From: a virus
IMG/VR virus record: IMGVR_UViG_3300044733_003647
Coordinates: 64,001 to 128,000 of that record
Length of the DNA stretch: 64,000 nucleotides
Strand: one strand, 5' to 3'
Made by a program: the position numbers and the translations under genes. Under the pieces are notes generated by a model. That model was given only the letters and a program-made list of their open reading frames with translations. It was not told where the DNA came from and did no database searches. Shown piece by piece: positions 2-10,240 of this stretch (position 1 is the first letter of the stretch; every line of letters begins with the position of its first letter).

Positions 2-667
2 AGTAATCTTTCCAGTGGTACTGTTCCTCTCGCTAGACTGAGTGGCATCACAACCACACAATTGAGTGCTAGTGCTGGTATTACGAATACACAGTTGTCA
101 AGTAGCACAATTTCTGGTGTTTCCTTGGGTGGAACTTTATCTTCACACTCAGCGGGAACATATTTGGTTGGTGATGTTTACAATGGCAGCACATCAAGAA
201 CATGGTCTGTTGATGCCACGACAACAGGTACCGCAAATAAAATTGCTGCAAGAGATGGTTCGGGTGACATATACGCAACAGTGTTCAGAGGTCTTGCAAC
301 TAGTGCCAACTACGCTGACTTGGCAGAAAAGTATTTGGCTGATCAAGAATATGAAGTTGGAACAGTTGTTGCTGTTGGTGGCGAAGCAGAAGTTACCGCT
401 GGTTCATATGGAGATAGAGCAATCGGAGTAGTATCTGCTCATCCTGCTTATATGATGAACAGTGAACTGGAAGGTGGAACTTATATTGCACTTAAAGGTA
501 GGGTTCCAGTGAAAGTATCTGGCACTGTGCGTAAAGGACAACGTTTGGTTGCATATAACAACGGTACGGCTGTTGCAGCAGTGCCACATGCAAATGACGT
601 TTTCGCAATCGCACTAGAATCGAGTGATGATACTGGAGTAAAACTAATTGAAGCAGTGATTTTATAA
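2..667 (+). CDS. Tail fibre/spike protein, C-terminal part with peptidase G2-like intramolecular chaperone/autocleavage domain (5' truncated by window)
   Basis: Frame is open from base 2; ADLAEKY...GTVV...IGVVS..PAY.MN...ALKGRVPVKV motif typical of autocleaving C-terminal chaperone domains. Confidence 0.75.
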   Translation, partial: SNLSSGTVPLARLSGITTTQLSASAGITNTQLSSSTISGVSLGGTLSSHSAGTYLVGDVYNGSTSRTWSVDATTTGTANKIAARDGSGDIYATVFRGLATSANYADLAEKYLADQEYEVGTVVAVGGEAEVTAGSYGDRAIGVVSAHPAYMMNSELEGGTYIALKGRVPVKVSGTVRKGQRLVAYNNGTAVAAVPHANDVFAIALESSDDTGVKLIEAVIL

Positions 668-749
668 ATTTCGAAATCCTGAGATCCGGCCCGAAAAAAA
701 TCGCCGCGCATCTCAGGTTCCGAAAAGTCATTTTTACTTTTTGATTGTT

Positions 750-1265
750 ATGATTACACTAGATGAGTTTGAAAACTTCTTACACACCGATTTGGTATAT
801 GAACAGAAAATAATCTCTGTCATTGATGATCAATCGCGTCAAATATTTCTGGATGGAATTGGTGAACTATATAAACATACAGGCAGCACCATAAAACTGG
901 AACAAATGGAAAAATACAGTCAAAGTATTTTTCAGAAATGCCAGAACCTTAGAAAAAAATACTCACATAATGGTCCGGTAACTTGTCATGCATTTCTGGC
1001 ATTCAAAGGTTCCAAAAGTTTTGGTTTGCATATAGATCCGGATGATGTTATAATTGAATGTATTTTCGGCTCAAAAACTCTGTTTGTTAATGATGTGAAA
1101 AATGTATTGAAAAGTGGTGACTGTATCTATATACCAGCCAACACACCACATGAGATCATTAATGAAGACAAGTCTTTGATATTGAGTTTTGGATTAGAAA
1201 AATTTTATGTTGAAAAGATAAATCATGGACTTAATGTTCTATTTGAAGACGACGGAAACTTGTAA
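750..1265 (+). CDS. JmjC/cupin-4-like Fe(II)/2OG oxygenase
   Basis: SFGLHIDPDDV...GSKT...LKSGDCIYIPANTPH gives an HxD...H triad; ATG at 750. Confidence 0.75.
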   Translation: MITLDEFENFLHTDLVYEQKIISVIDDQSRQIFLDGIGELYKHTGSTIKLEQMEKYSQSIFQKCQNLRKKYSHNGPVTCHAFLAFKGSKSFGLHIDPDDVIIECIFGSKTLFVNDVKNVLKSGDCIYIPANTPHEIINEDKSLILSFGLEKFYVEKINHGLNVLFEDDGNL

Positions 1266-2280
1266 CTTAAACTGTTTACATTGTTTTACCAGTGGTTCCA
1301 AAGGCGCAAAGATATATTGGAATCACATCAAGGTTGCCGACTGGTTACACAGAATGGCAGCACAAACACAATATGCACCACACGTTCACTTTGAATTTCA
1401 TGGTGGCGAACCATTCTTGGCAGATATATCTTCTATGCAGTATGTGTATGACAATTGCCAGAACTTATGGAAAAGTCAAAGTTGGGGCATCACAACCAAT
1501 CTGGCTTTCAAACTAGACCAAGAAAAAATAGACTTCATTATGGGTCCATTGGGTGGCAGAGTCGGTACCAGTTGGGATCCAGATATTCGATTTGCAAATC
1601 CTAAACAGTATGATCTGTGGAGAAAGAATGTGCAGACACTGATTGATATGGGTGTCGTTGTGAAACTATTCATCAGTGTAACTAAAGGCACGATTGCAAT
1701 TGAACCTATCGAACTACTAGAGTGGGTCAGATCACTCGGTGTCAAAGAACTGGCACTAGAAAGACTGACGATGAACGGCAGTGCCAAACAAAACCTACAT
1801 ATATTTCCCACAAATGTGGAACAGGACGAATGGTTTCTGAAGATGCACCATCAGAGTGAAGAACATGGTGCAAGAGGTTGGTTTGATAATGAATTTCTGG
1901 AAACGGTGTACAATAAATTCGAAACGGGTTTCACCGCAGGCGGAACATTCTGTAGAGATTGTGAAGAGAAGTTATTCACACTAAATGCGGATGGAACCAT
2001 ATCTGGATGCCCAAATTCTGCACCGGAGTTTCAATTTGGCACGATAGATGATGATATAGAAAGCCTTATAAATAGTCCAACCAGATTGGAAAACATTGCA
2101 TGTGAAAGGTCTAGGGATCCTAGATGTTATTCGTGTGATGTATTTGAATATTGTGGCGGAGATTGTCATCAACTAGAATGGGAAAATGATGTGTGTGGTG
2201 CACCAAAAAGTTTGATGAGATTCTTAAAAAGCAATCAAAAAAGAAAAGTATGGATATTAAAAGATGGCAACATTAACTAA
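1225..2280 (+). CDS. Radical SAM/SPASM domain protein 1
   Basis: CNLNCLHC, FHGGEPF; C-terminal CRDC...ISGCP...CYSCDVFEYCGGDC...C. Confidence 0.92.
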   Translation: MDLMFYLKTTETCNLNCLHCFTSGSKGAKIYWNHIKVADWLHRMAAQTQYAPHVHFEFHGGEPFLADISSMQYVYDNCQNLWKSQSWGITTNLAFKLDQEKIDFIMGPLGGRVGTSWDPDIRFANPKQYDLWRKNVQTLIDMGVVVKLFISVTKGTIAIEPIELLEWVRSLGVKELALERLTMNGSAKQNLHIFPTNVEQDEWFLKMHHQSEEHGARGWFDNEFLETVYNKFETGFTAGGTFCRDCEEKLFTLNADGTISGCPNSAPEFQFGTIDDDIESLINSPTRLENIACERSRDPRCYSCDVFEYCGGDCHQLEWENDVCGAPKSLMRFLKSNQKRKVWILKDGNIN

Positions 2281-2836
2281 CCCTATAAGAACACAAAACA
2301 TCGTTGATAGATTTGCAGATTACGTAACCGCAACATCAGCTTCAGGTATTTCATGGGGCACAAACGCATATCCATTTGCAGAATTTGATGGTGGATATTT
2401 TGGTGGTTCAACTAGTGGAAGAGCAATAGGCATAAATGGAGGAAGTATTGGTTCTTCCGGCACAAGAATTACAGCATCAAATATTTACAATACACTTGTG
2501 AATGAAACTGCGGCATACACTTCAATCAGGAACTTACGTGCGATATTGTTTGTCGATGGCGCCGGTGGCAACACCGGTTCACGCCCAACACCCGGTGTTA
2601 TTTACGACCAAACAGCTGTTGCGTACATGAACGGTAGTTATCTTCAAAGCATTGGTACACCAGCAAATAATGGTGTAGCTTCCGGAAATGTCGCGTCTGC
2701 CACAAATCTAGAATCATTCTTTAACACATTAAGAAGTACATATAATAGTGCAAGAGGAAGTACAGTGACTATACAAGTTAACGTCTGTCATGCTTCTTGC
2801 CATTCGTCATGCCATGGTTCGCGTTCTAGGAGATAA
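2264..2836 (+). CDS. 190-aa G/S/T/N/A-rich protein with C-terminal (CHxS)3-RSRR tail; candidate substrate of the cluster
   Basis: Ends VCHASCHSSCHGSRSRR; no Cys or His elsewhere; overlaps the rSAM1 stop. Confidence 0.8.
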   Translation: MATLTNPIRTQNIVDRFADYVTATSASGISWGTNAYPFAEFDGGYFGGSTSGRAIGINGGSIGSSGTRITASNIYNTLVNETAAYTSIRNLRAILFVDGAGGNTGSRPTPGVIYDQTAVAYMNGSYLQSIGTPANNGVASGNVASATNLESFFNTLRSTYNSARGSTVTIQVNVCHASCHSSCHGSRSRR

Positions 2837-2838
2837 TA

Positions 2839-3558
2839 ATGAATGTCGTTGAAACAACTGCGCCAGTATCTATTGATAATTTAAAAAAATATTTCACAGA
2901 CAAAACAACTTTTTTTGTTATCAACTATAAAGACAGTACCTTAAAAGGTTCAAAACTTTTGACATATATTTCCAACCTGGACATACCATGTGATATCTCT
3001 TTTAAAGATTGTTCGAATGAAGAATGCTTTGAAATGATCAAAGATTACTTGAATACATCCATGATTGTTAATGTTCCATCTTTAGAAAGTTCTACGATTG
3101 CAATTCTTCATCAAGCAAAAGGATTGATACCGCCGATTGATAAAGAATTCATTGAACAGAATAGAGAAATTTTGAATAAATGGATATCTAAACTGGAAAG
3201 TTTGACTCTTTATAATATGCATATCATCAAAGATGATGCATTTAAACAGTTCGTTGATAGTTTTCCGGTTGATGATACAAAAGAAATGAACGGAGTTAAT
3301 TTCATAAGTCTGTTAAAACACAAAAATTTATATTCGTTCTTTCAGAACACAAATCAAAACAGTTTAAAATTTTATTCACACTATTTTAATGAGTACGTTT
3401 TTAAAGGTAAGAATTTATTTTCTTACTGGGCAAACGAAAACAATCCTTTATTTTTGCTTACATATGGTATCGCTGAAGGGCTGGTTAAAGAAAATGAATA
3501 CGTTGAAATGAAAAATAAAACTATTCAGGAGTTTAAAGATGTTTCATCTGTTCAATAA
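2839..3558 (+). CDS. Hypothetical protein (rSAM cluster)
   Basis: 239-aa ORF coupled to both neighbours. Confidence 0.75.
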   Translation: MNVVETTAPVSIDNLKKYFTDKTTFFVINYKDSTLKGSKLLTYISNLDIPCDISFKDCSNEECFEMIKDYLNTSMIVNVPSLESSTIAILHQAKGLIPPIDKEFIEQNREILNKWISKLESLTLYNMHIIKDDAFKQFVDSFPVDDTKEMNGVNFISLLKHKNLYSFFQNTNQNSLKFYSHYFNEYVFKGKNLFSYWANENNPLFLLTYGIAEGLVKENEYVEMKNKTIQEFKDVSSVQ

Positions 3559-4576
3559 AGTTTATATCGTTTCAGATAGTTTGATTGATATAAACTTTGA
3601 TAGAGTGGTGCTATCGGAGAAGTATGGAATTAAAATGTCCGAACAATTGGACAAAGTTTCATATGGTGAGTTATTAATGTATGCAGACAAATTTGCAAAT
3701 CTGGGAAAATCTTTCGATAATTTTGTAAAAGCACTACACGATCATAGTTCAAAAACAAACAAAAGTGTTTTGGTGTATGTTGATGACAAAAATTTTATCG
3801 AATTGACAAGTAATTGGTTAATTAGACTATTCAAAAATATGGATGCAAGCACTGCTTGGTTCGTTGTTGATTCTTATCTAAAGAAAACGAAGAAAAGCCA
3901 ATCTTGGAGAAATAATCACTCTTCTTCACAAGTAGAAATATACAAAGATGTGAGTGAAACAGAATTCAAAAAAGTATTTGGTGGTCTTACTATTGACAAA
4001 GTTGATGCAGTGTATACCACAATCAGAGAACAGATAAGTTTAGAATTTTTAGTCGCGTCTTATAAACATGATGGTTCAAACTTACCACAATTAATTGTTT
4101 CTTTAGAAAAAATTCTAAAAAGAACACTACAAGAAATATTGTTGGAGATAAAACACACTGTGTATAAGAACCAACATAAACCCAACTTTAATATTCCATT
4201 CGATGAAACATTTTTTGGCAATTCAACACTGTATAAATCTGAACTACTTGGTAAAGTTGGTGAAGCATCGAATGTTGATATCATAAATTCTTCCGAAGAA
4301 GACATTAAGAAATTCAAAGATATAGCCAAACAAGTCTATATGAATTGGGATAAATTCTCTGAGAATTCTCCCATCATCAAGAAACTGGACTTGCTTGATC
4401 TGCTGCGCGGCGGCTTAACAAAAGAAGAAGTCGATAAAGTTTTACAGATGGAAAAAGAAGATACATCGAACAGTAGAGTTTATCCATCTAGCGACGAAGA
4501 ACACATCAACATCTACTTGTTGGATCATGTATTAAATCAAAACTCGGAACAATTGAAATCATATCAACTTAGATGA
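3539..4576 (+). CDS. Hypothetical protein (rSAM cluster)
   Basis: 345-aa ORF, AGGAG SD upstream, overlaps neighbours. Confidence 0.75.
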   Translation: MFHLFNKVYIVSDSLIDINFDRVVLSEKYGIKMSEQLDKVSYGELLMYADKFANLGKSFDNFVKALHDHSSKTNKSVLVYVDDKNFIELTSNWLIRLFKNMDASTAWFVVDSYLKKTKKSQSWRNNHSSSQVEIYKDVSETEFKKVFGGLTIDKVDAVYTTIREQISLEFLVASYKHDGSNLPQLIVSLEKILKRTLQEILLEIKHTVYKNQHKPNFNIPFDETFFGNSTLYKSELLGKVGEASNVDIINSSEEDIKKFKDIAKQVYMNWDKFSENSPIIKKLDLLDLLRGGLTKEEVDKVLQMEKEDTSNSRVYPSSDEEHINIYLLDHVLNQNSEQLKSYQLR

Positions 4577-5202
4577 AACAAAATGATTATTATGATTTAG
4601 GTTTTTTTCAATCGAATGTACCTGATGATATCTTGAAATTACTTTGGTCGGAAGTTTATCTGACTGAGTGGATGAATGATTCGGAAGAGGGTATCTACAA
4701 ACAAATACCTTCTTGGTACAAAAAGAAAAACAAATATGAATTGAAGAAAGATGGTTCAAATAGATCCGAATATGAACGTCTGATTGGAAAAGAAGTTTTC
4801 GAAAAGACTCCGATCACACTGATAAAAATTGGCAATAAACTTATAGAGAATGATCAATTTGATTTTTTCAGAACTTACTACAAATCACACGAATTAAAAT
4901 ACATTGATCTCTGGAATGGTTCAGAGAGTATAGATTACCATTTCGATACGATAAATGGATGTGACACGCTCATTCTGATTTATCTTACAGACTCCGAAAA
5001 GTGGTCGAGTGAATGGGGCGGTTCTATAACCATGAAGAAACAAGTCGGCAACATTTGTCATTATGAACAAAAAATTCTTCCTAATAATGGAACTATGTTG
5101 GTTATAAACAATGCAAACCCACTTGTCATGCACAAGGTAGAAAAACTTCATAACACATCAATAAATAGATACACCTTCTCTTTTATTTACAAGTGGTTTT
5201 AA
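4573..5202 (+). CDS. 2OG-Fe(II) oxygenase
   Basis: YHFD...LILIYL...WGG...MHKV...RYTF (HxD...H...R); ATGA overlap. Confidence 0.85.
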   Translation: MKQNDYYDLGFFQSNVPDDILKLLWSEVYLTEWMNDSEEGIYKQIPSWYKKKNKYELKKDGSNRSEYERLIGKEVFEKTPITLIKIGNKLIENDQFDFFRTYYKSHELKYIDLWNGSESIDYHFDTINGCDTLILIYLTDSEKWSSEWGGSITMKKQVGNICHYEQKILPNNGTMLVINNANPLVMHKVEKLHNTSINRYTFSFIYKWF

Positions 5203-5203
5203 A

Positions 5204-6223
5204 TTGATAGCTGAACATGTATTGAATATACACAATAAGAGACCAGATACTGGTGAAATTATTGTAACACTGTTTGAATATTGTGATCTGAGTTGTTTAT
5301 TCTGCAACCAAGACCACGATAGCTATGAGGGTATCGATACAATAGTTGGTAAATTTGACTCAATTAAATTGTCAATTGACCAGCAAATAAAAAAAGGCAA
5401 AAAGCAAATCTCCATACACATGATGGGTGGAGAATTATTCTCGGATACAGTAGAAGATAAAGTATTCGACGACTACGCCGAACTCACCAAGAAATTACTG
5501 GCATACGGCAAAGAAATAAACATACCTTTAGAAGTTTCTTTCATTACCAACTTTATATGGGAAAAGAAACAAAGAATAAAGAAATTTCTGGACGATAACG
5601 AAATATCGGTTATGACTAGTTATGACCCGTCAGGTAGATTCAACAAAAAAACTTTTGAAGTCTACAAAAAAAACATACAAGATTTTAAAGAATATATAAT
5701 CAGTGTCAACGTCATTATGACGAAGCCAAATATAGATAAATTCATGTCGGACAATGTACCGTTTTTTGATTACTTGTACGAAAACTTTCCAATCTATTTT
5801 GATTATTATGGACCAGGAAAAAACCATGAATTTCTAATGGCGAAAGACATTGAGATTCGTGACTTTATGAAGTACATGTTTGAGAACTGGAACAATTGTC
5901 ATCCGTTCAAAACATTTGCCAATAAAACCGCAAACAAAATGTCATGCATGGATACGCATACTGTTATGCCATCTGGAAAATGGGGTGGTTGTGGTTACTT
6001 TGAGAATTTGGAGAAAGTTATACCTATTAAAGTTGTGACTGAACAACAATGGTTTGATAGTTACAATTGTTACGAATGCGAACACCTACAAAGGTGTACT
6101 ATGGGGTGTTTTATGAGCAATCACGTGAAAGACATGAGAACTCAAGACACATGTTGGTTAAAAGAAGTCTATGACTATGTTGATTTAAAAGTTGGAAACG
6201 AAAATGATATTACCATTAATTGA
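5204..6223 (+). CDS. Radical SAM/SPASM-like protein 2
   Basis: CDLSCLFC, MGGE; C-terminal CMD...GGCG...CYECEHLQRCTMGC...C; TTG start. Confidence 0.88.
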   Translation: MIAEHVLNIHNKRPDTGEIIVTLFEYCDLSCLFCNQDHDSYEGIDTIVGKFDSIKLSIDQQIKKGKKQISIHMMGGELFSDTVEDKVFDDYAELTKKLLAYGKEINIPLEVSFITNFIWEKKQRIKKFLDDNEISVMTSYDPSGRFNKKTFEVYKKNIQDFKEYIISVNVIMTKPNIDKFMSDNVPFFDYLYENFPIYFDYYGPGKNHEFLMAKDIEIRDFMKYMFENWNNCHPFKTFANKTANKMSCMDTHTVMPSGKWGGCGYFENLEKVIPIKVVTEQQWFDSYNCYECEHLQRCTMGCFMSNHVKDMRTQDTCWLKEVYDYVDLKVGNENDITIN

Positions 6224-7304
6224 ATTAAACAAAGATTTCATTGCCTCGGAGGCAATTCATTACGTTCAAAGAACATATACAGATTTTAAATTTGAATATG
6301 ACTTGCTTCGCAGAGACATACACATGGTCATCGACATATTCATGGGTGAATTGCATGTGGAAGGTGGTGTTTACTCCTATGATATCGAAGAAGGTAAAGA
6401 TGATTCTTACTTTCAACTGAACAGATACAAAAGGTCGTTTACAGTTTTCAGAAATCATTCAGATGAAACAATAAACTGTATACAATACACGGCAAACTTA
6501 ATAAAAGATGTAATCACAAATAAAAAAATTCAACCAGTTTACAATACACAATTTGAACAACTGTATGATACTAAACAAAAATTCAATGAAGAAAAACTAG
6601 GTGAATTTGATACGATTTGTGGATTGATTGTTGCGAATTCTGCCGCAGGTTCAAACAGAAATTACCATATTGATTTCATTGAAGAATATTTCGATAAAGG
6701 TTTCGTTGTGACCAAAATTCCTCCTCATATTCACGAAAGATTATGGGAAGAAGTCAGAAATACCAAATGGATCGATGCAAAGAAATCAACTTACAAAAAA
6801 GTTCCAGACTGGTATCACGAAAACGAAAAACATTATGTTGATCCTACCGGATATGATAGACCATCTTACGAAAGAAAAATTGGTGCAGACATTTTCACAA
6901 ATGCACCAAAGAGTTTAATTGATATTTCGGATGATCTGATCAAAGATGATACATTCTCACCTTTAAGGATGTATAGACCACCAAATGCCATCACAAAGTA
7001 TCTTCATTTCTGGAATGGCAGTGAGAATTCACCACATCACGTTGATGCAATCGATGGTTCTGACCTAATGGTTTTCTGTTATCTGACAGAAGAAAAGGAC
7101 TGGAAAGAAGAGTGGGGTGGTTACATTAATATTATGAAAGAAGTGAATTCAGAAATAACAAACACCAAAACCATTTTACCAAACGATGGTGTCATGGTAT
7201 TGGTAAACAATTCTGCACCAATCTTCAAACATGGCATTCGGAACTTAATCAAACGCGACATTAATAGATACACATTCATCTTTCATTACACTTGGACATA
7301 TTGA
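6204..7304 (+). CDS. 2OG-Fe(II) oxygenase with N-terminal extension (paralogue of 4573..5202)
   Basis: WNGSE..HHVDAIDGSD...WGG...FKHG...RYTF; ATG at 6204. Confidence 0.85.
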   Translation: MILPLIELNKDFIASEAIHYVQRTYTDFKFEYDLLRRDIHMVIDIFMGELHVEGGVYSYDIEEGKDDSYFQLNRYKRSFTVFRNHSDETINCIQYTANLIKDVITNKKIQPVYNTQFEQLYDTKQKFNEEKLGEFDTICGLIVANSAAGSNRNYHIDFIEEYFDKGFVVTKIPPHIHERLWEEVRNTKWIDAKKSTYKKVPDWYHENEKHYVDPTGYDRPSYERKIGADIFTNAPKSLIDISDDLIKDDTFSPLRMYRPPNAITKYLHFWNGSENSPHHVDAIDGSDLMVFCYLTEEKDWKEEWGGYINIMKEVNSEITNTKTILPNDGVMVLVNNSAPIFKHGIRNLIKRDINRYTFIFHYTWTY

Positions 7305-7319
7305 ATCTAAAATTTTGTC

Positions 7320-8390
7320 ATGGAATTAATTATTAAACCCACTGAAAAGTGTAACTTCAAGTGTACCTTTTGTTCAAGTACGCACATCACCGATGATAAG
7401 ACAGCGGAGTTGGATCACGAATATATCTTTAAGTTTTTAAAGAGATATCCAGAAACAAATACCATAATTGTTAATGGTGGCGATCCACTAATGATGAGCC
7501 CAGAATATTACTGGAAAATAATTGAACATCTGAATGAAATTGGTAGTGATGCTCGCATATCATTTACCAGTAATCTATGGCCATTCTATAAGAATCCCAA
7601 AAAATGGACCGAACTGTTTACGCATCCTCGCATGGGTATTACAACCAGTTTCCAATATGGTGGTGGTAGACTCAAAGGTGACTTGACAGAGTTCAGTGAA
7701 GAAGACTTCTGGAACGTCAGTGATATGATGCTGGACGTTGTTGGTTATCGCCCGGACTTCATAAGTGTTATCACTAAGGAGAATGAACATCTAGCCATCA
7801 AGAACGTTGAACTGGCCAAGGAAATGGATGTGGAATGTAAATTGAACTATGCGTTCAGTAGTGGACCTCCGGTAAAATTTAAAAACATTACCATGGGCCA
7901 ACAAGGGCAACCATATTTACTGGCATATATGTATAAAATATATGTTGAAATATGGAAAAAAGATTTGACAAAGTGGGAATATAACACAAAACAGATGGTA
8001 AAAAGACTGGTTGGTCATGCAACCACTTGCCCACAAAATAGAAACTGTGATGCAAACATCCGAACATTACAACCTAGTGGTGACTATTATAGTTGCGGTG
8101 CATTTGGTGACGATAAACTTTATCAAATAGATTTCGAAAAAGAAATGTCAGGTGAAAAAATATTTCCTTTGAGATTTCAACCAGAAATACAGAGCCTTAA
8201 AAGTTCTTGTTTCACTTGCCCAATGTTTCAAATTTGTAATGGTTGCAAGAAAACAATCAAAGATTTAAAAGACCATGACTTGGTGGAAGAACACTGTTCT
8301 AAAATGAAACTGTTGGCACCAGATATTATCGAGTCAAATGGAATGACAGGTATTCTGGAGCCTACACCGTATGTTAGAGAATACCCATGA
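7320..8390 (+). CDS. Radical SAM/SPASM domain protein 3
   Basis: KPTEKCNFKCTFC, NGGDPL; CPQNRNC...YSCG...CFTCPMFQICNGC...HC. Confidence 0.92.
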   Translation: MELIIKPTEKCNFKCTFCSSTHITDDKTAELDHEYIFKFLKRYPETNTIIVNGGDPLMMSPEYYWKIIEHLNEIGSDARISFTSNLWPFYKNPKKWTELFTHPRMGITTSFQYGGGRLKGDLTEFSEEDFWNVSDMMLDVVGYRPDFISVITKENEHLAIKNVELAKEMDVECKLNYAFSSGPPVKFKNITMGQQGQPYLLAYMYKIYVEIWKKDLTKWEYNTKQMVKRLVGHATTCPQNRNCDANIRTLQPSGDYYSCGAFGDDKLYQIDFEKEMSGEKIFPLRFQPEIQSLKSSCFTCPMFQICNGCKKTIKDLKDHDLVEEHCSKMKLLAPDIIESNGMTGILEPTPYVREYP

Positions 8391-9295
8391 ATGTTTCTAT
8401 TAATCCCAGTTACTTCTGTAACTTCAGATGTGACTTTTGTTATCTGACGGAAGAACAGTTGTCTGACCAGAAGAAAATAGAATTAGAAAAACTAGATGAT
8501 TTGTTATCACAGATACCAAACATAGAACATGTTGATTTGTATGGTGGTGAAATTGGTACATTAAAGAAAGACTACTTTTATGGATTGAGAGACACGATTC
8601 GCAAACACTATAGTGGCAAAATCAATATCAATACCAACTATTCAATGTTGCATGAAGGTTTTTATGAAGATGATTTCTACCTGAGTGTTAGTTACGATTG
8701 GGTAGCCAGAGAAAAGTCAGACAGAGTTTATCAGAACATGTTGATGAGCCCAGTACCCATAGCCGTACTGGTCTTGGCTAGCCCCAAAGTATTACAGATG
8801 GATGTAGATGATTTTATATTATCGATGAACATGTGTAGTAGTGTGAGAAGTGTGGAAATAAAACCTTACAGCACCAACCAGGCAAATCAACATCCCGTCA
8901 CACACAAAGACTTTGAGGAGTTTGTTAAAAAGTGGATCGAAAGCCCGTTACAAAAAAACTTTGAATTCATTAACGAATATTATATTGAAGATGTTCTGAA
9001 TGGTAACCGAAATGCATTCAGTGATGACCACATCTACATCACACCAAATGGTAAATTTGCTGTACTGGAATTCGATTTAAATGACAATGAATATTTTTTG
9101 GAACTGGATAGTTGGGAAGACTACCTTAAATGGACACAAAAAGAAAAACGAAACAACGTTAGTGATATCTGTAGAAGTTGTGAGTTTTATGGTAAATGCC
9201 TGACAGAACACTATCGTTACGTCAAGGATCTAAATAATAGTTGCAATGGTTATAAATTTTTAATAGAGTGGTATCGTGAAAGACTGGAAAATTAG
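8387..9295 (+). CDS. Radical SAM protein 4 (partial SPASM)
   Basis: CNFRCDFC, YGGE; C-terminal CRSCEFYGKC...SC; ATGA overlap. Confidence 0.88.
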   Translation: MNVSINPSYFCNFRCDFCYLTEEQLSDQKKIELEKLDDLLSQIPNIEHVDLYGGEIGTLKKDYFYGLRDTIRKHYSGKININTNYSMLHEGFYEDDFYLSVSYDWVAREKSDRVYQNMLMSPVPIAVLVLASPKVLQMDVDDFILSMNMCSSVRSVEIKPYSTNQANQHPVTHKDFEEFVKKWIESPLQKNFEFINEYYIEDVLNGNRNAFSDDHIYITPNGKFAVLEFDLNDNEYFLELDSWEDYLKWTQKEKRNNVSDICRSCEFYGKCLTEHYRYVKDLNNSCNGYKFLIEWYRERLEN

Positions 9296-9671
9296 ACAAG
9301 AAATTTATCATAGACTCAACACCGATTTCGATGATGATCTGAAAACCAAATCGGTTGAAATGTCAGATGATATTATTGGTAATGCTGTTCGTTATTTCAA
9401 TGATCGTAACATAGGATGGATATATCCAGCCAAAAGTTACATGGTCGGCATATGTTATGCACGATGGTTGTCTGAATATTTTGGTGGAGAACCACTAGAA
9501 TATTTGAAAGAACAGTCTCTTCTTTTCGACAACGACCCATACTATAAAAATTACGAACTGGATCAAAAAACATATGATGAAATTCTGAGTAAGATCAATC
9601 ACTGGAACTTTGAAGAAAAGGGTTTGGTGCCAGATGTGAAAAAGTATTTTATGGAAGAGTTCATGTTATGA
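9276..9671 (+). CDS. Hypothetical protein (rSAM cluster)
   Basis: 131-aa ORF overlapping both neighbours. Confidence 0.7.
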   Translation: MKDWKIRQEIYHRLNTDFDDDLKTKSVEMSDDIIGNAVRYFNDRNIGWIYPAKSYMVGICYARWLSEYFGGEPLEYLKEQSLLFDNDPYYKNYELDQKTYDEILSKINHWNFEEKGLVPDVKKYFMEEFML

Positions 9672-10240
9672 TTCAGAATTTGTGGCCAACACCATTTCTG
9701 AAAACGGATTTTTCGGAAGAAATAAGAAATAATCTTCTCAGTCATTTTTTAACCAAATATGACATGTTCAATTCTTCAGGTGATTTAAGTAACATAAACA
9801 TATTCGACGATGAATCGGATATTATTTGTAAGTTTACTGATGAAGTTGTGTTATCACTTTTTGATACATTTCTGAAAGAGAGTTTGGGAAAAGAAATCTC
9901 AGATTGGAAAAGTCACAATCTAAAAGGCTGGTTGACTGGTTCCGGAAAAAACTACGCCTCAAATTTCCACAACCATAAGGGTGCGGCAGTATCATCCATC
10001 TTTTATATCTTGTGTGAAGAGATAGATGTTGGTGGTGATATTTACTTCACAGATCCGAGACAGAACTCAAATAGAGGTTATGATAATCAATTCTCAAAGT
10101 GGTTTGATAATCTATCTTTCACACCAAAGAGTGGTGATGCCGTGGTTTTTCCAAGTTTTCTATATCATTTTGTTGAAACTTATAGGGGAAACATCAGAAT
10201 AGCTATGCCAGTTGATCTGTTCCTCTATACAAATGAGTGA
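9668..10240 (+). CDS. Putative 2OG-Fe(II) oxygenase (TIGR02466-like phage family)
   Basis: LWPTP N-terminus, FHNH...SSIFY...FTDPR...PKSGDAVVFPSFLYHFV...RIAM. Confidence 0.85.
   Translation: MIQNLWPTPFLKTDFSEEIRNNLLSHFLTKYDMFNSSGDLSNINIFDDESDIICKFTDEVVLSLFDTFLKESLGKEISDWKSHNLKGWLTGSGKNYASNFHNHKGAAVSSIFYILCEEIDVGGDIYFTDPRQNSNRGYDNQFSKWFDNLSFTPKSGDAVVFPSFLYHFVETYRGNIRIAMPVDLFLYTNE

Follow-up and report, generated by a model that had tools for sequence, protein, structure and literature searches.

For radical S-adenosylmethionine (rSAM) enzymes with SPASM domains, the known maturation substrates are small peptides, a handful of enzymes and, as of 2026, a single defence effector. The closest known system to the locus described here is the HXS antiphage system, whose HxsA protein of ~214 amino acids (aa) carries five basic His-x-Ser (HxS) repeats and is matured by HxsB, HxsC and HxsD (2026 paper, PMC13128918). 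Modification adds +8 Da to HxsA at an SHRSS unit, whose His and two Ser residues are essential (PMC13128918). HxsA blocks phage DNA entry from the periplasm, and HXS is distributed almost only among Pseudomonadota, mostly Gammaproteobacteria (PMC13128918). HxsA therefore provides a precedent for an rSAM-matured HxS-repeat protein. His-based three-residue cyclophanes are also established rSAM chemistry, as in HtkB and HaaB with links from His-C2 to C-beta (PMC11499958). On the phage side, the papers searched list the rSAM genes of marine T4-like and jumbo phages as unexplained (PMC7029224, PMC5332604, PMC11898562). A pelagimyophage paper places rSAM cassettes in the host-recognition cluster without stating their function, and papers on cultured jumbo phages, among them RSL2, Atu_ph07 and pPa_SNUABM_DT01 (DT01), give the genes only as radical SAM, cupin and 2-oxoglutarate (2OG) proteins. 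Here we analysed a 64,000-nt stretch of viral DNA, the window, which spans positions 64,001 to 128,000 of the IMG/VR record IMGVR_UViG_3300044733_003647 (156,657 bp, estimated 94% complete). It contains a gene for a protein, hereafter the target, that ends in three Cys-His-x-Ser units followed by Arg-x-Arg-Arg (RxRR) and lies in a cassette of rSAM and oxygenase genes. Literature searches found no description of a function for this tail or cassette. We propose, with a probability of roughly 0.6, that the target belongs to the virion and that its flexible tail serves the surrounding rSAM cassette as substrate.

The target open reading frame (ORF; 2264-2836, plus strand) has 190 codons, its product has the C-terminus VCHASCHSSCHGSRSRR, and its Cys codons begin at 2786. 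An earlier note, made from the letters of this DNA, had pointed out that the first 174 residues contain no Lys, Cys or His and that every Cys and His is packed into the tail, which the translation bears out. Its description of the body as rich in Gly, Ser, Thr, Asn and Ala also agrees with the composition (56%), but the body looks globular and not fibre-like. The absence of Lys and His is peculiar to the window copy and is not a family trait: homologue bodies contain on average 2.4 Lys and 0.9 His, and 82% of them are without Cys outside the tail. A word-indexed search returned 806 homologues from marine and other metagenomes, nearly all of 187-196 aa, and none of the 806 carries a functional name. 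Cluster representatives at 50%, searched exhaustively with HMMER, gave 326 homologues, 151 of them at E ≤ 1e-10. A fusion to a Gly_rich_2 domain was seen in one homologue. No genuine short-precursor forms were found; the 13 short matches are fragment-like and come mostly from short contigs.

The tail is nearly invariant across this family. The closest 120 homologues end in three C-H-x-x units and then R-x-R-R, with two single-residue exceptions, and ~140 of 150 cluster representatives keep the exact pattern at body identities down to ~30%. Homologues lacking the tail, which would have spoken against the earlier note, are thus not the common case, and the conservation of the motif lies far beyond chance expectation. 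Tail composition was counted in 110 distinct tail DNAs from the fetched loci, preselected for the Cys and Arg pattern. His is present in units 2 and 3 of all 110 tails. Ser stands two residues after His (His+2) in 108, 87 and 91 of them for units 1, 2 and 3, respectively, with 20 Asn in unit 2 and 10 Asn and 9 Ala in unit 3, and the residue between the tail Arg residues is Gly in 96. The codons are mixed: TGT and TGC for Cys and CAT and CAC for His are used near-equally, Ser is encoded by AGY as well as TCN, and Arg by six codons. Since the codons vary freely while the residues are fixed, the C-H-x-S unit appears to be selected at the protein level, as the earlier note had supposed. Its own ground for this, that the three units of the window copy differ in their codons, is right for Cys (TGT, TGC, TGC) and Ser (TCT, TCG, TCA, TCG) but not for His, which is CAT three times. 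A DNA-level tandem repeat was rejected as the origin of the tail because the units differ in codons. A c-type haem motif (CxxxCH) was likewise rejected, for want of an export signal or a periplasmic context for haem attachment.

Variants of the tail include forms with four units (L168, L121), a form with two (P0238) and forms in which a G-rich end replaces RxRR (P0243, P0255, P0262). Tandem gene pairs encoding tail proteins of 125-137 aa replace the single 190-aa protein at three loci (L092 6062-6879, L119 585-1354, L146 3477-4237). One variant, P0244, was found in two independent samples (L096 2453-3034, L097 602-1183) and has Cys-Tyr in all three units (CYSD-CYVNP-CYRS-RGRR); its cassette is otherwise normal, with an additional gene for a B12-type (B12-binding) rSAM. 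In a Gram-positive-associated copy, on a Gemella contig (L095 7980-8570), the tail ends in CHSSCHSNCHHR without RxRR and the gene lies amid several divergent rSAM genes.

The second line of evidence is the linkage of the tail gene to the cassette, which in the window consists of twelve ORFs between 741 and 10240, all on one strand and abutting or overlapping. The start of the target overlaps the end of the rSAM1 ORF (1225-2280) by 17 nt. An IMG/VR scan retrieved 80 loci with target relatives at 36-79% identity, and rSAM1 lies directly 5' of the target in every one of them having upstream sequence. The order kept across these loci is fibre, (cupin), rSAM1, target, 239-aa protein, 345-aa protein, rSAM2, rSAM3, rSAM4, 131-aa protein and 2OG oxygenase, with variable insertions. 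The reverse search, starting from rSAM3, gave 79 new loci, and ~55 of the ~58 with enough flank contain a tail-bearing ORF; the exceptions are L100, described below, and L171, where rSAM1 and rSAM3 are the only cassette genes. Homologues standing without rSAM neighbours would also have told against the earlier note, but the linkage of rSAM1 and target is counted in 80 of 80 viral loci. Its reading of the tail as a core for rSAM modification gains from the 17-nt overlap with an rSAM/SPASM gene and from the co-conservation of three further rSAMs and the JmjC_2 cupin in every informative locus; the part that made the body a leader did not survive, as described below. Most members of the family come from marine T4-like phages whose relatives infect SAR11 and Methylophilales. 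The major capsid protein of the window shares 63-66% identity with its counterparts in Methylophilales phage Melnitz and in the Pelagibacter phages Mosig and HTVC008M.

The linkage extends beyond these phages. A scan of 185,579 species genomes found 11 loci, with the cassette in 10 of them; the remaining locus is on a contig of 5.4 kb that breaks off at the gene. Five of the 11 (L087-L089, L093, L094) are on contigs of Bdellovibrio-like metagenome-assembled genomes (MAGs), and another is the Gemella locus L095. At one of the Bdellovibrio-like loci (L093, a 299-kb contig of a Pseudobdellovibrio MAG) the cassette is rearranged, with genes on both strands; the gene for a phosphonate ABC-transporter binding protein is 6 kb away and no fibre homologue was detected nearby. 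This cassette may be a chromosomal, non-phage copy.

Among cultured phages, a tblastn search of the target against 50,697 records gave no matches. Because the target bodies are too divergent, cultured homologues could be reached only through rSAM1, whose homologues at 40-50% identity are found in the jumbo myophages RSL2 and RSF1 of Ralstonia, FLC6, FLC8 and S13 of Burkholderia, Atu_ph07 of Agrobacterium, Phosso of Sinorhizobium and DT01 of Pseudomonas. The gene after rSAM1 encodes a protein ending in VCHSSCHTSCHGSRGRR in RSL2, FCHSSCHASCHNSRSRR in Atu_ph07 and ICHTSCHTSCHSARGRR in DT01. Between the DT01 protein and the target the alignment spans 171 residues (28% identity, E 4e-15), and the two bodies are therefore homologous. 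The core common to the window phage and these three phages comprises the cupin, rSAM1, the target, the 239-aa partner, rSAM2, rSAM3 and rSAM4. Phages RP12 and RP31 were dropped, as their rSAM cluster differs.

The Atu_ph07 homologue is a component of the phage particle. In electrospray ionization tandem mass spectrometry (ESI-MS/MS) of purified Atu_ph07 particles, gp170 (31.89 kDa) was detected by 8 unique peptides with 35% coverage, in gel bands 1-9 and most abundantly in band 1 (PMC6102473 Table S5). We identify gp170 as the target homologue because the translated mass of 31,894 Da agrees with the protein on the virion list. In the same table, proteins of ~30 kDa peak in bands 7-8 and those of 87-127 kDa in band 1 (PMC6102473). 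Since gp170 peaks in band 1 despite its 31.9 kDa, it migrates mostly as a high-mass species after heating in sodium dodecyl sulfate. The published loading buffer lists no reductant, so that gp170 oligomers joined by disulfides are no less possible than ones with covalent links of another kind. Absent from the Atu_ph07 virion list are the rSAMs (gp165, gp168 and gp171), the cupin (gp172) and the partner (gp169); the fibre homologue gp176 is on it (PMC6102473 Table S5).

The fold of the target was predicted by AlphaFold2 from 133 diverse sequences, a first run with 26 close sequences having been poor (predicted local distance difference test, pLDDT, 58). The model has a mean pLDDT of 90.9 and a predicted template modelling score of 0.84. 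Residues 1-174 form a compact alpha/beta domain, and the tail leaves the last strand as a coil, along which the pLDDT falls from 75 to 54. The confident compact fold argues that the body is not a disposable leader. The earlier note had taken it for a large structural leader, a claim we set aside: it is a conserved folded domain, a homologue is kept in the virion and short-precursor forms are absent. The internal echo which the same note had picked out was recovered as a profile-level match by hhalign (residues 64-100 against 139-176; probability 87.8%, E 3e-6), and two helix-strand units are found there in the model. Searches for similar folds recovered no relative outside the family, the best results being E 0.63 (Foldseek against PDB), Z 4.0 (VIA-align wide) and TM ≤ 0.33 (ESM Atlas), which is no proof of a new fold. 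BFVD matches were confined to family members, including Atu_ph07 gp170, and three larger proteins of one uncultured myovirus.

A putative expression signal of the T4 late type lies upstream of the target. An exact late-promoter-like box (Table 1) is found ≤350 nt 5' of the target in 69 of the 80 related loci, compared to 0 of 80 control windows, and it clusters at -176 to -200 or -25 to -34. This predicted late box fits a structural protein that is made in larger amounts than its enzymes. A further element, TATAAATT at 663-670, has one mismatch to the late box and overlaps the stop codon of the fibre gene just before the cupin gene.

The linkage and co-conservation, together with a tail that is invariant on a diverging body, make the tail most likely the substrate of the cassette; this relation, and the nature of the modification, are what we infer. 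Given the near-invariant tail, the adjacency of rSAM genes and the presence of a homologue in particles, the locus probably represents an undescribed chemical finishing of a virion protein. The target is best regarded as a component of the virion that is modified, rather than as the precursor of a peptide made on the ribosome and modified post-translationally (RiPP). We propose that it would be a late-expressed, virion-associated protein of the tail-fibre/baseplate module, whose compact alpha/beta body would bear the flexible tail (Cys-His-x-Ser)3-Arg-x-Arg-Arg as the dedicated substrate of four SPASM/twitch rSAMs, the JmjC-type cupin, the 239-aa partner and variable 2OG oxygenases. The enzymes would work in the infected cell and would not be packaged, and the modified protein would be built into the particle. 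The likeliest chemistry may be radical cross-linking within or between tails, with His-to-Ser C-beta links (of the three-residue cyclophane or HxS type), Cys thioethers or both as candidates, and the cupin may beta-hydroxylate His or Arg. The outcome could be a rigid, protease-resistant end piece, possibly metal-binding or covalently oligomerised. The strong retention of Ser at His+2 fits an H-x-S unit. The nearest solved structures to rSAM1 by profile are 8vpo, anSME, CteB, ChlB and YydG, with MoaA and an archaeal tetraether-lipid synthase also found, and by sequence anSME is nearest to rSAM3 and second for rSAM1. That the nearest solved relatives of rSAM1 modify peptides or proteins is counted in favour of the proposal, as are the place of the cupin in a family of protein hydroxylases and the all-Tyr variant P0244 inside a normal cassette.

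Under the proposal, phage rSAM cassettes are tied to a single invariant motif, their substrate, carried by a virion protein. Should the tail prove to be cross-linked, this would be a post-translational modification of a new class for virus particles, and it would also supply new rSAM chemistry that works on Cys-His-x-Ser units. With a defined motif and culturable models (RSL2, Atu_ph07 and pPa_SNUABM_DT01), the function of a phage rSAM cassette is therefore testable by mass spectrometry and phage genetics.

Several points weigh against the tail being the substrate of the cassette. The relation between enzymes and substrate is drawn wholly from gene linkage and co-conservation, and presence in the virion is known for a distant homologue only, not for the window phage. 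The height of gp170 in the gel could reflect disulfides, and the three Cys and three His might merely bind metal. No chemistry can be assigned because the rSAMs score far under every curated family cut-off: matches to named maturase families (PapB, anSME, DynA, HxsB, HxsC, AmcB, FxsB and others) are ~ten-fold below, and none of the cut-offs for PapB, SCIFF, AmcB, FxsB, YhhB, GrrM, DarE and DynA was reached (best PapB 47.6 bits against 340, DynA 49.1 against 450). Lastly, at one locus (L100 2302-4135) the 239-aa partner comes directly after an rSAM1-like gene (383 aa, 28% identity), and no tail protein was found in the 21 kb fetched. The substrate there may have been lost, or it may be encoded in another part of the 149-kb contig.

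The rival that survives best, though we consider it rather unlikely, is that the tail is an unmodified metal site. In that case Cys3/His3 would hold Zn, Fe or Cu, RxRR would perhaps bind nucleic acid or an acidic partner, the enzymes would act on fibre proteins or a small molecule, and the linkage would reflect a shared structural module. Three Cys and three His with a period of four and a basic end would suit such a site, as would the position of the cassette among fibre genes and a tail that is unstructured in the monomer model, as expected if the site took shape only with a metal bound or in an oligomer. Other phages offer established cases of metal ions along fibre axes and of Fe-S clusters in tail-tip proteins, and we count this in its favour. 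A metal site leaves unexplained, however, why Ser at His+2 is kept via both Ser codon families, why His is swapped wholesale for Tyr in P0244, and why the tail gene tracks the cassette into unrelated phages and into Bdellovibrio-like contigs without nearby fibre genes. Nor does the cassette contain another conserved Cys/His-rich candidate substrate on which the enzymes could act instead.

A bolder extension of the proposed tail modification, which we regard as quite improbable, is that phages and their prey-hunting relatives put RiPP-type radical cross-links into a particle protein, with (CHxS)3-RxRR as the phage-side counterpart of HXS chemistry. Its place of action would be the envelope or DNA-entry step, in the role of adhesin tip, metal claw, DNA handler or anti-HXS decoy, and if true, rSAM-matured HxS proteins would be deployed on both sides of the arms race. 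More doubtful still is the narrower version in which the tail protein is a virion-carried, basic, rSAM-matured HxS module that handles DNA at the entry step or decoys HxsA-like effectors. HxsA is itself rSAM-matured with basic HxS repeats, binds DNA and blocks phage DNA entry (PMC13128918), and the phage tail has HxS units and a basic end on a protein whose homologue is virion-borne. However, the argument is one of motif resemblance, neither the enzymes nor the substrate are homologous to Hxs proteins, and the near confinement of HXS to Pseudomonadota, mostly Gammaproteobacteria, stands against a tail family found mostly in marine T4-like phages. Least probable of all is a classical RiPP or cofactor pathway, in which the body would be a leader or scaffold and the modified tail would be cleaved and released as a bioactive peptide or as a redox cofactor in the manner of pyrroloquinoline quinone or mycofactocin: a C-terminal core adjoining SPASM maturases and the several rSAMs and oxygenases would suit it, but the cassette showed no peptidase, transporter or RRE-type domain, the body is conserved and folded and its homologue is in virions with 35% peptide coverage, the short matches are fragment-like rather than genuine precursors, and the late promoter box suggests expression at a structural level.

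The features of the locus are collected in Table 1. The three cysteine clusters of rSAM1, comprising the CxxxCxxC motif and the SPASM cysteines, are invariant among its orthologues (n = 19), and of the four rSAMs it is rSAM1 and rSAM3 that have SPASM domains at or near threshold. PADLOC gave generic rSAM (viperin) matches only. The identity of 57-64% for rSAM3 between the marine T4-like phage and soil jumbo phages (L082 16206-17282, L083 14047-15153, L084 13732-14823) is high for such distant phages, which suggests either strong constraint or horizontal spread of the cassette. PF08007, to which the cupin belongs, is the family of ribosomal-protein His and Arg beta-hydroxylases. The 239-aa partner (2839-3558) had no Pfam and no PDB profile matches, and its best Atlas score was 0.75. 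Nearly all 80 loci have a homologue of the fibre protein 5' of the cassette, and the virion protein gp176 of Atu_ph07 is another.

Table 1. Features of the target locus in window coordinates.
Feature	Position	Strand	Evidence or remark
Upstream fibre protein, C-terminal part	2..667	+	Peptidase_G2 IMC-like (intramolecular-chaperone) domain, 24 bits, just below cut-off 25; tail-fibre PHROG
JmjC_2/cupin Fe(II) oxygenase, first cassette gene	741..1265	+	PF08007, 37.9 bits (cut-off 22); PF07883; orthologues in RSL2, Atu_ph07 and DT01
rSAM1, radical SAM/SPASM	1225..2280	+	CxxxCxxC motif; SPASM TIGR04085, 35 bits (cut-off 27)
Exact T4-type late-promoter-like box TATAAATA	2067..2074	+	Inside rSAM1, ~190 nt 5' of target start
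Target protein, 190 aa	2264..2836	+	Alpha/beta body (residues 1-174) and tail
16-residue tail CHAS-CHSS-CHGS-RSRR, proposed modification site	2786..2833	+	Near-invariance in family; predicted coil
Conserved 239-aa partner	2839..3558	+	phrog_20767; always adjoins target; in all loci and three cultured phages
345-aa protein, weakly conserved cassette member	3539..4576	+	Neighbour comparison
2OG-Fe(II) oxygenase, variable accessory gene	4573..5202	+	PF13640; presence differs by locus
rSAM2, radical SAM with SPASM-like Cys cluster	5204..6223	+	Orthologues in all cultured relatives
2OG-Fe(II) oxygenase with N-terminal extension, variable accessory gene	6192..7304	+	PF13640
rSAM3, radical SAM/SPASM, most conserved cassette enzyme	7320..8390	+	57-64% identity to RSL2, Atu_ph07 and DT01 orthologues
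rSAM4, radical SAM with reduced auxiliary Cys cluster	8387..9295	+	Orthologues in cultured relatives
Conserved 131-aa protein	9276..9671	+	phrog_20737; in most loci
2OG-Fe(II) oxygenase, PF13759 type	9668..10240	+	PF13759

Compared with HXS, the phage system is similar in outline but is not a member. Both have a full-size protein with tandem His-x-Ser units in a basic context and dedicated rSAM genes adjoining it, and the essential His and Ser of HxsA have their parallel in the phage tail, where His is invariant and Ser nearly so. The phage tail differs in having a Cys before each His and in carrying its repeat at the extreme C-terminus, ending in RxRR. Its cassette has four SPASM/twitch rSAMs and a cupin. 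It is encoded by phages and has a virion-borne homologue, whereas HXS is a periplasmic host defence. The HxsA precedent thus backs the idea of the earlier note that the tail resembles Hxs substrates, but by no hidden Markov model criterion is this an Hxs system. The target and its three cultured-phage homologues have no NCBIfam match to the HxsA model (TIGR03979) at E ≤ 0.01 despite their three H-x-S triplets. The HxsB and HxsC cut-offs were not reached (rSAM1 to HxsB, 36 bits against 370; rSAM3 to HxsC, 28.5 against 267.9; rSAM4 to HxsC, 15.4), and none of the 12 cassette proteins matched the HxsD model. The target has no Pfam domain, hence no peptidoglycan-binding domain, and no signal-peptide-like N-terminus by eye.

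The other relatives are biosynthetic. As in rSAM/SPASM RiPP pathways, the substrate gene adjoins a SPASM maturase; the short precursor, leader removal and peptide release or export of such pathways were not found here. Triceptides share with the tail aromatic-x-x units (H-x-S and, in one variant, Y-x-D/N/S) adjoining SPASM rSAMs. Unlike them, the phage maturases score far under the AmcB, FxsB, YhhB and GrrM cut-offs, the substrate is a 190-aa folded virion protein without leader removal or export, and the invariant Cys and RxRR are without a triceptide counterpart. The last unit, C-H-[GS]-S-R, resembles the sulfatase motif C/S-x-P/A-x-R recognised by anSME in its Cys, the Ser at +3 and the Arg at +4. 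It differs at +2, which is Gly in 52, Ser in 43 and Ala in 2 of 110 tails instead of Pro or Ala, and the target has no sulfatase domain; matches to the anSME equivalog TIGR03942 reach 43-47 bits against a cut-off of 349. Compared with the thioether-forming SPASM maturases (PapB and the ranthipeptides, CteB, SCIFF), the phage tail lacks acidic acceptors at the usual spacing, no family cut-off was reached and the context is a virion. The likeness to them lies in the regular Cys spacing, in PapB as the top weak match of rSAM1 and in CteB among its nearest structures. For rSAM action on a protein subunit there is a precedent in QhpD, which cross-links the QhpC subunit that is kept in the final assembly.

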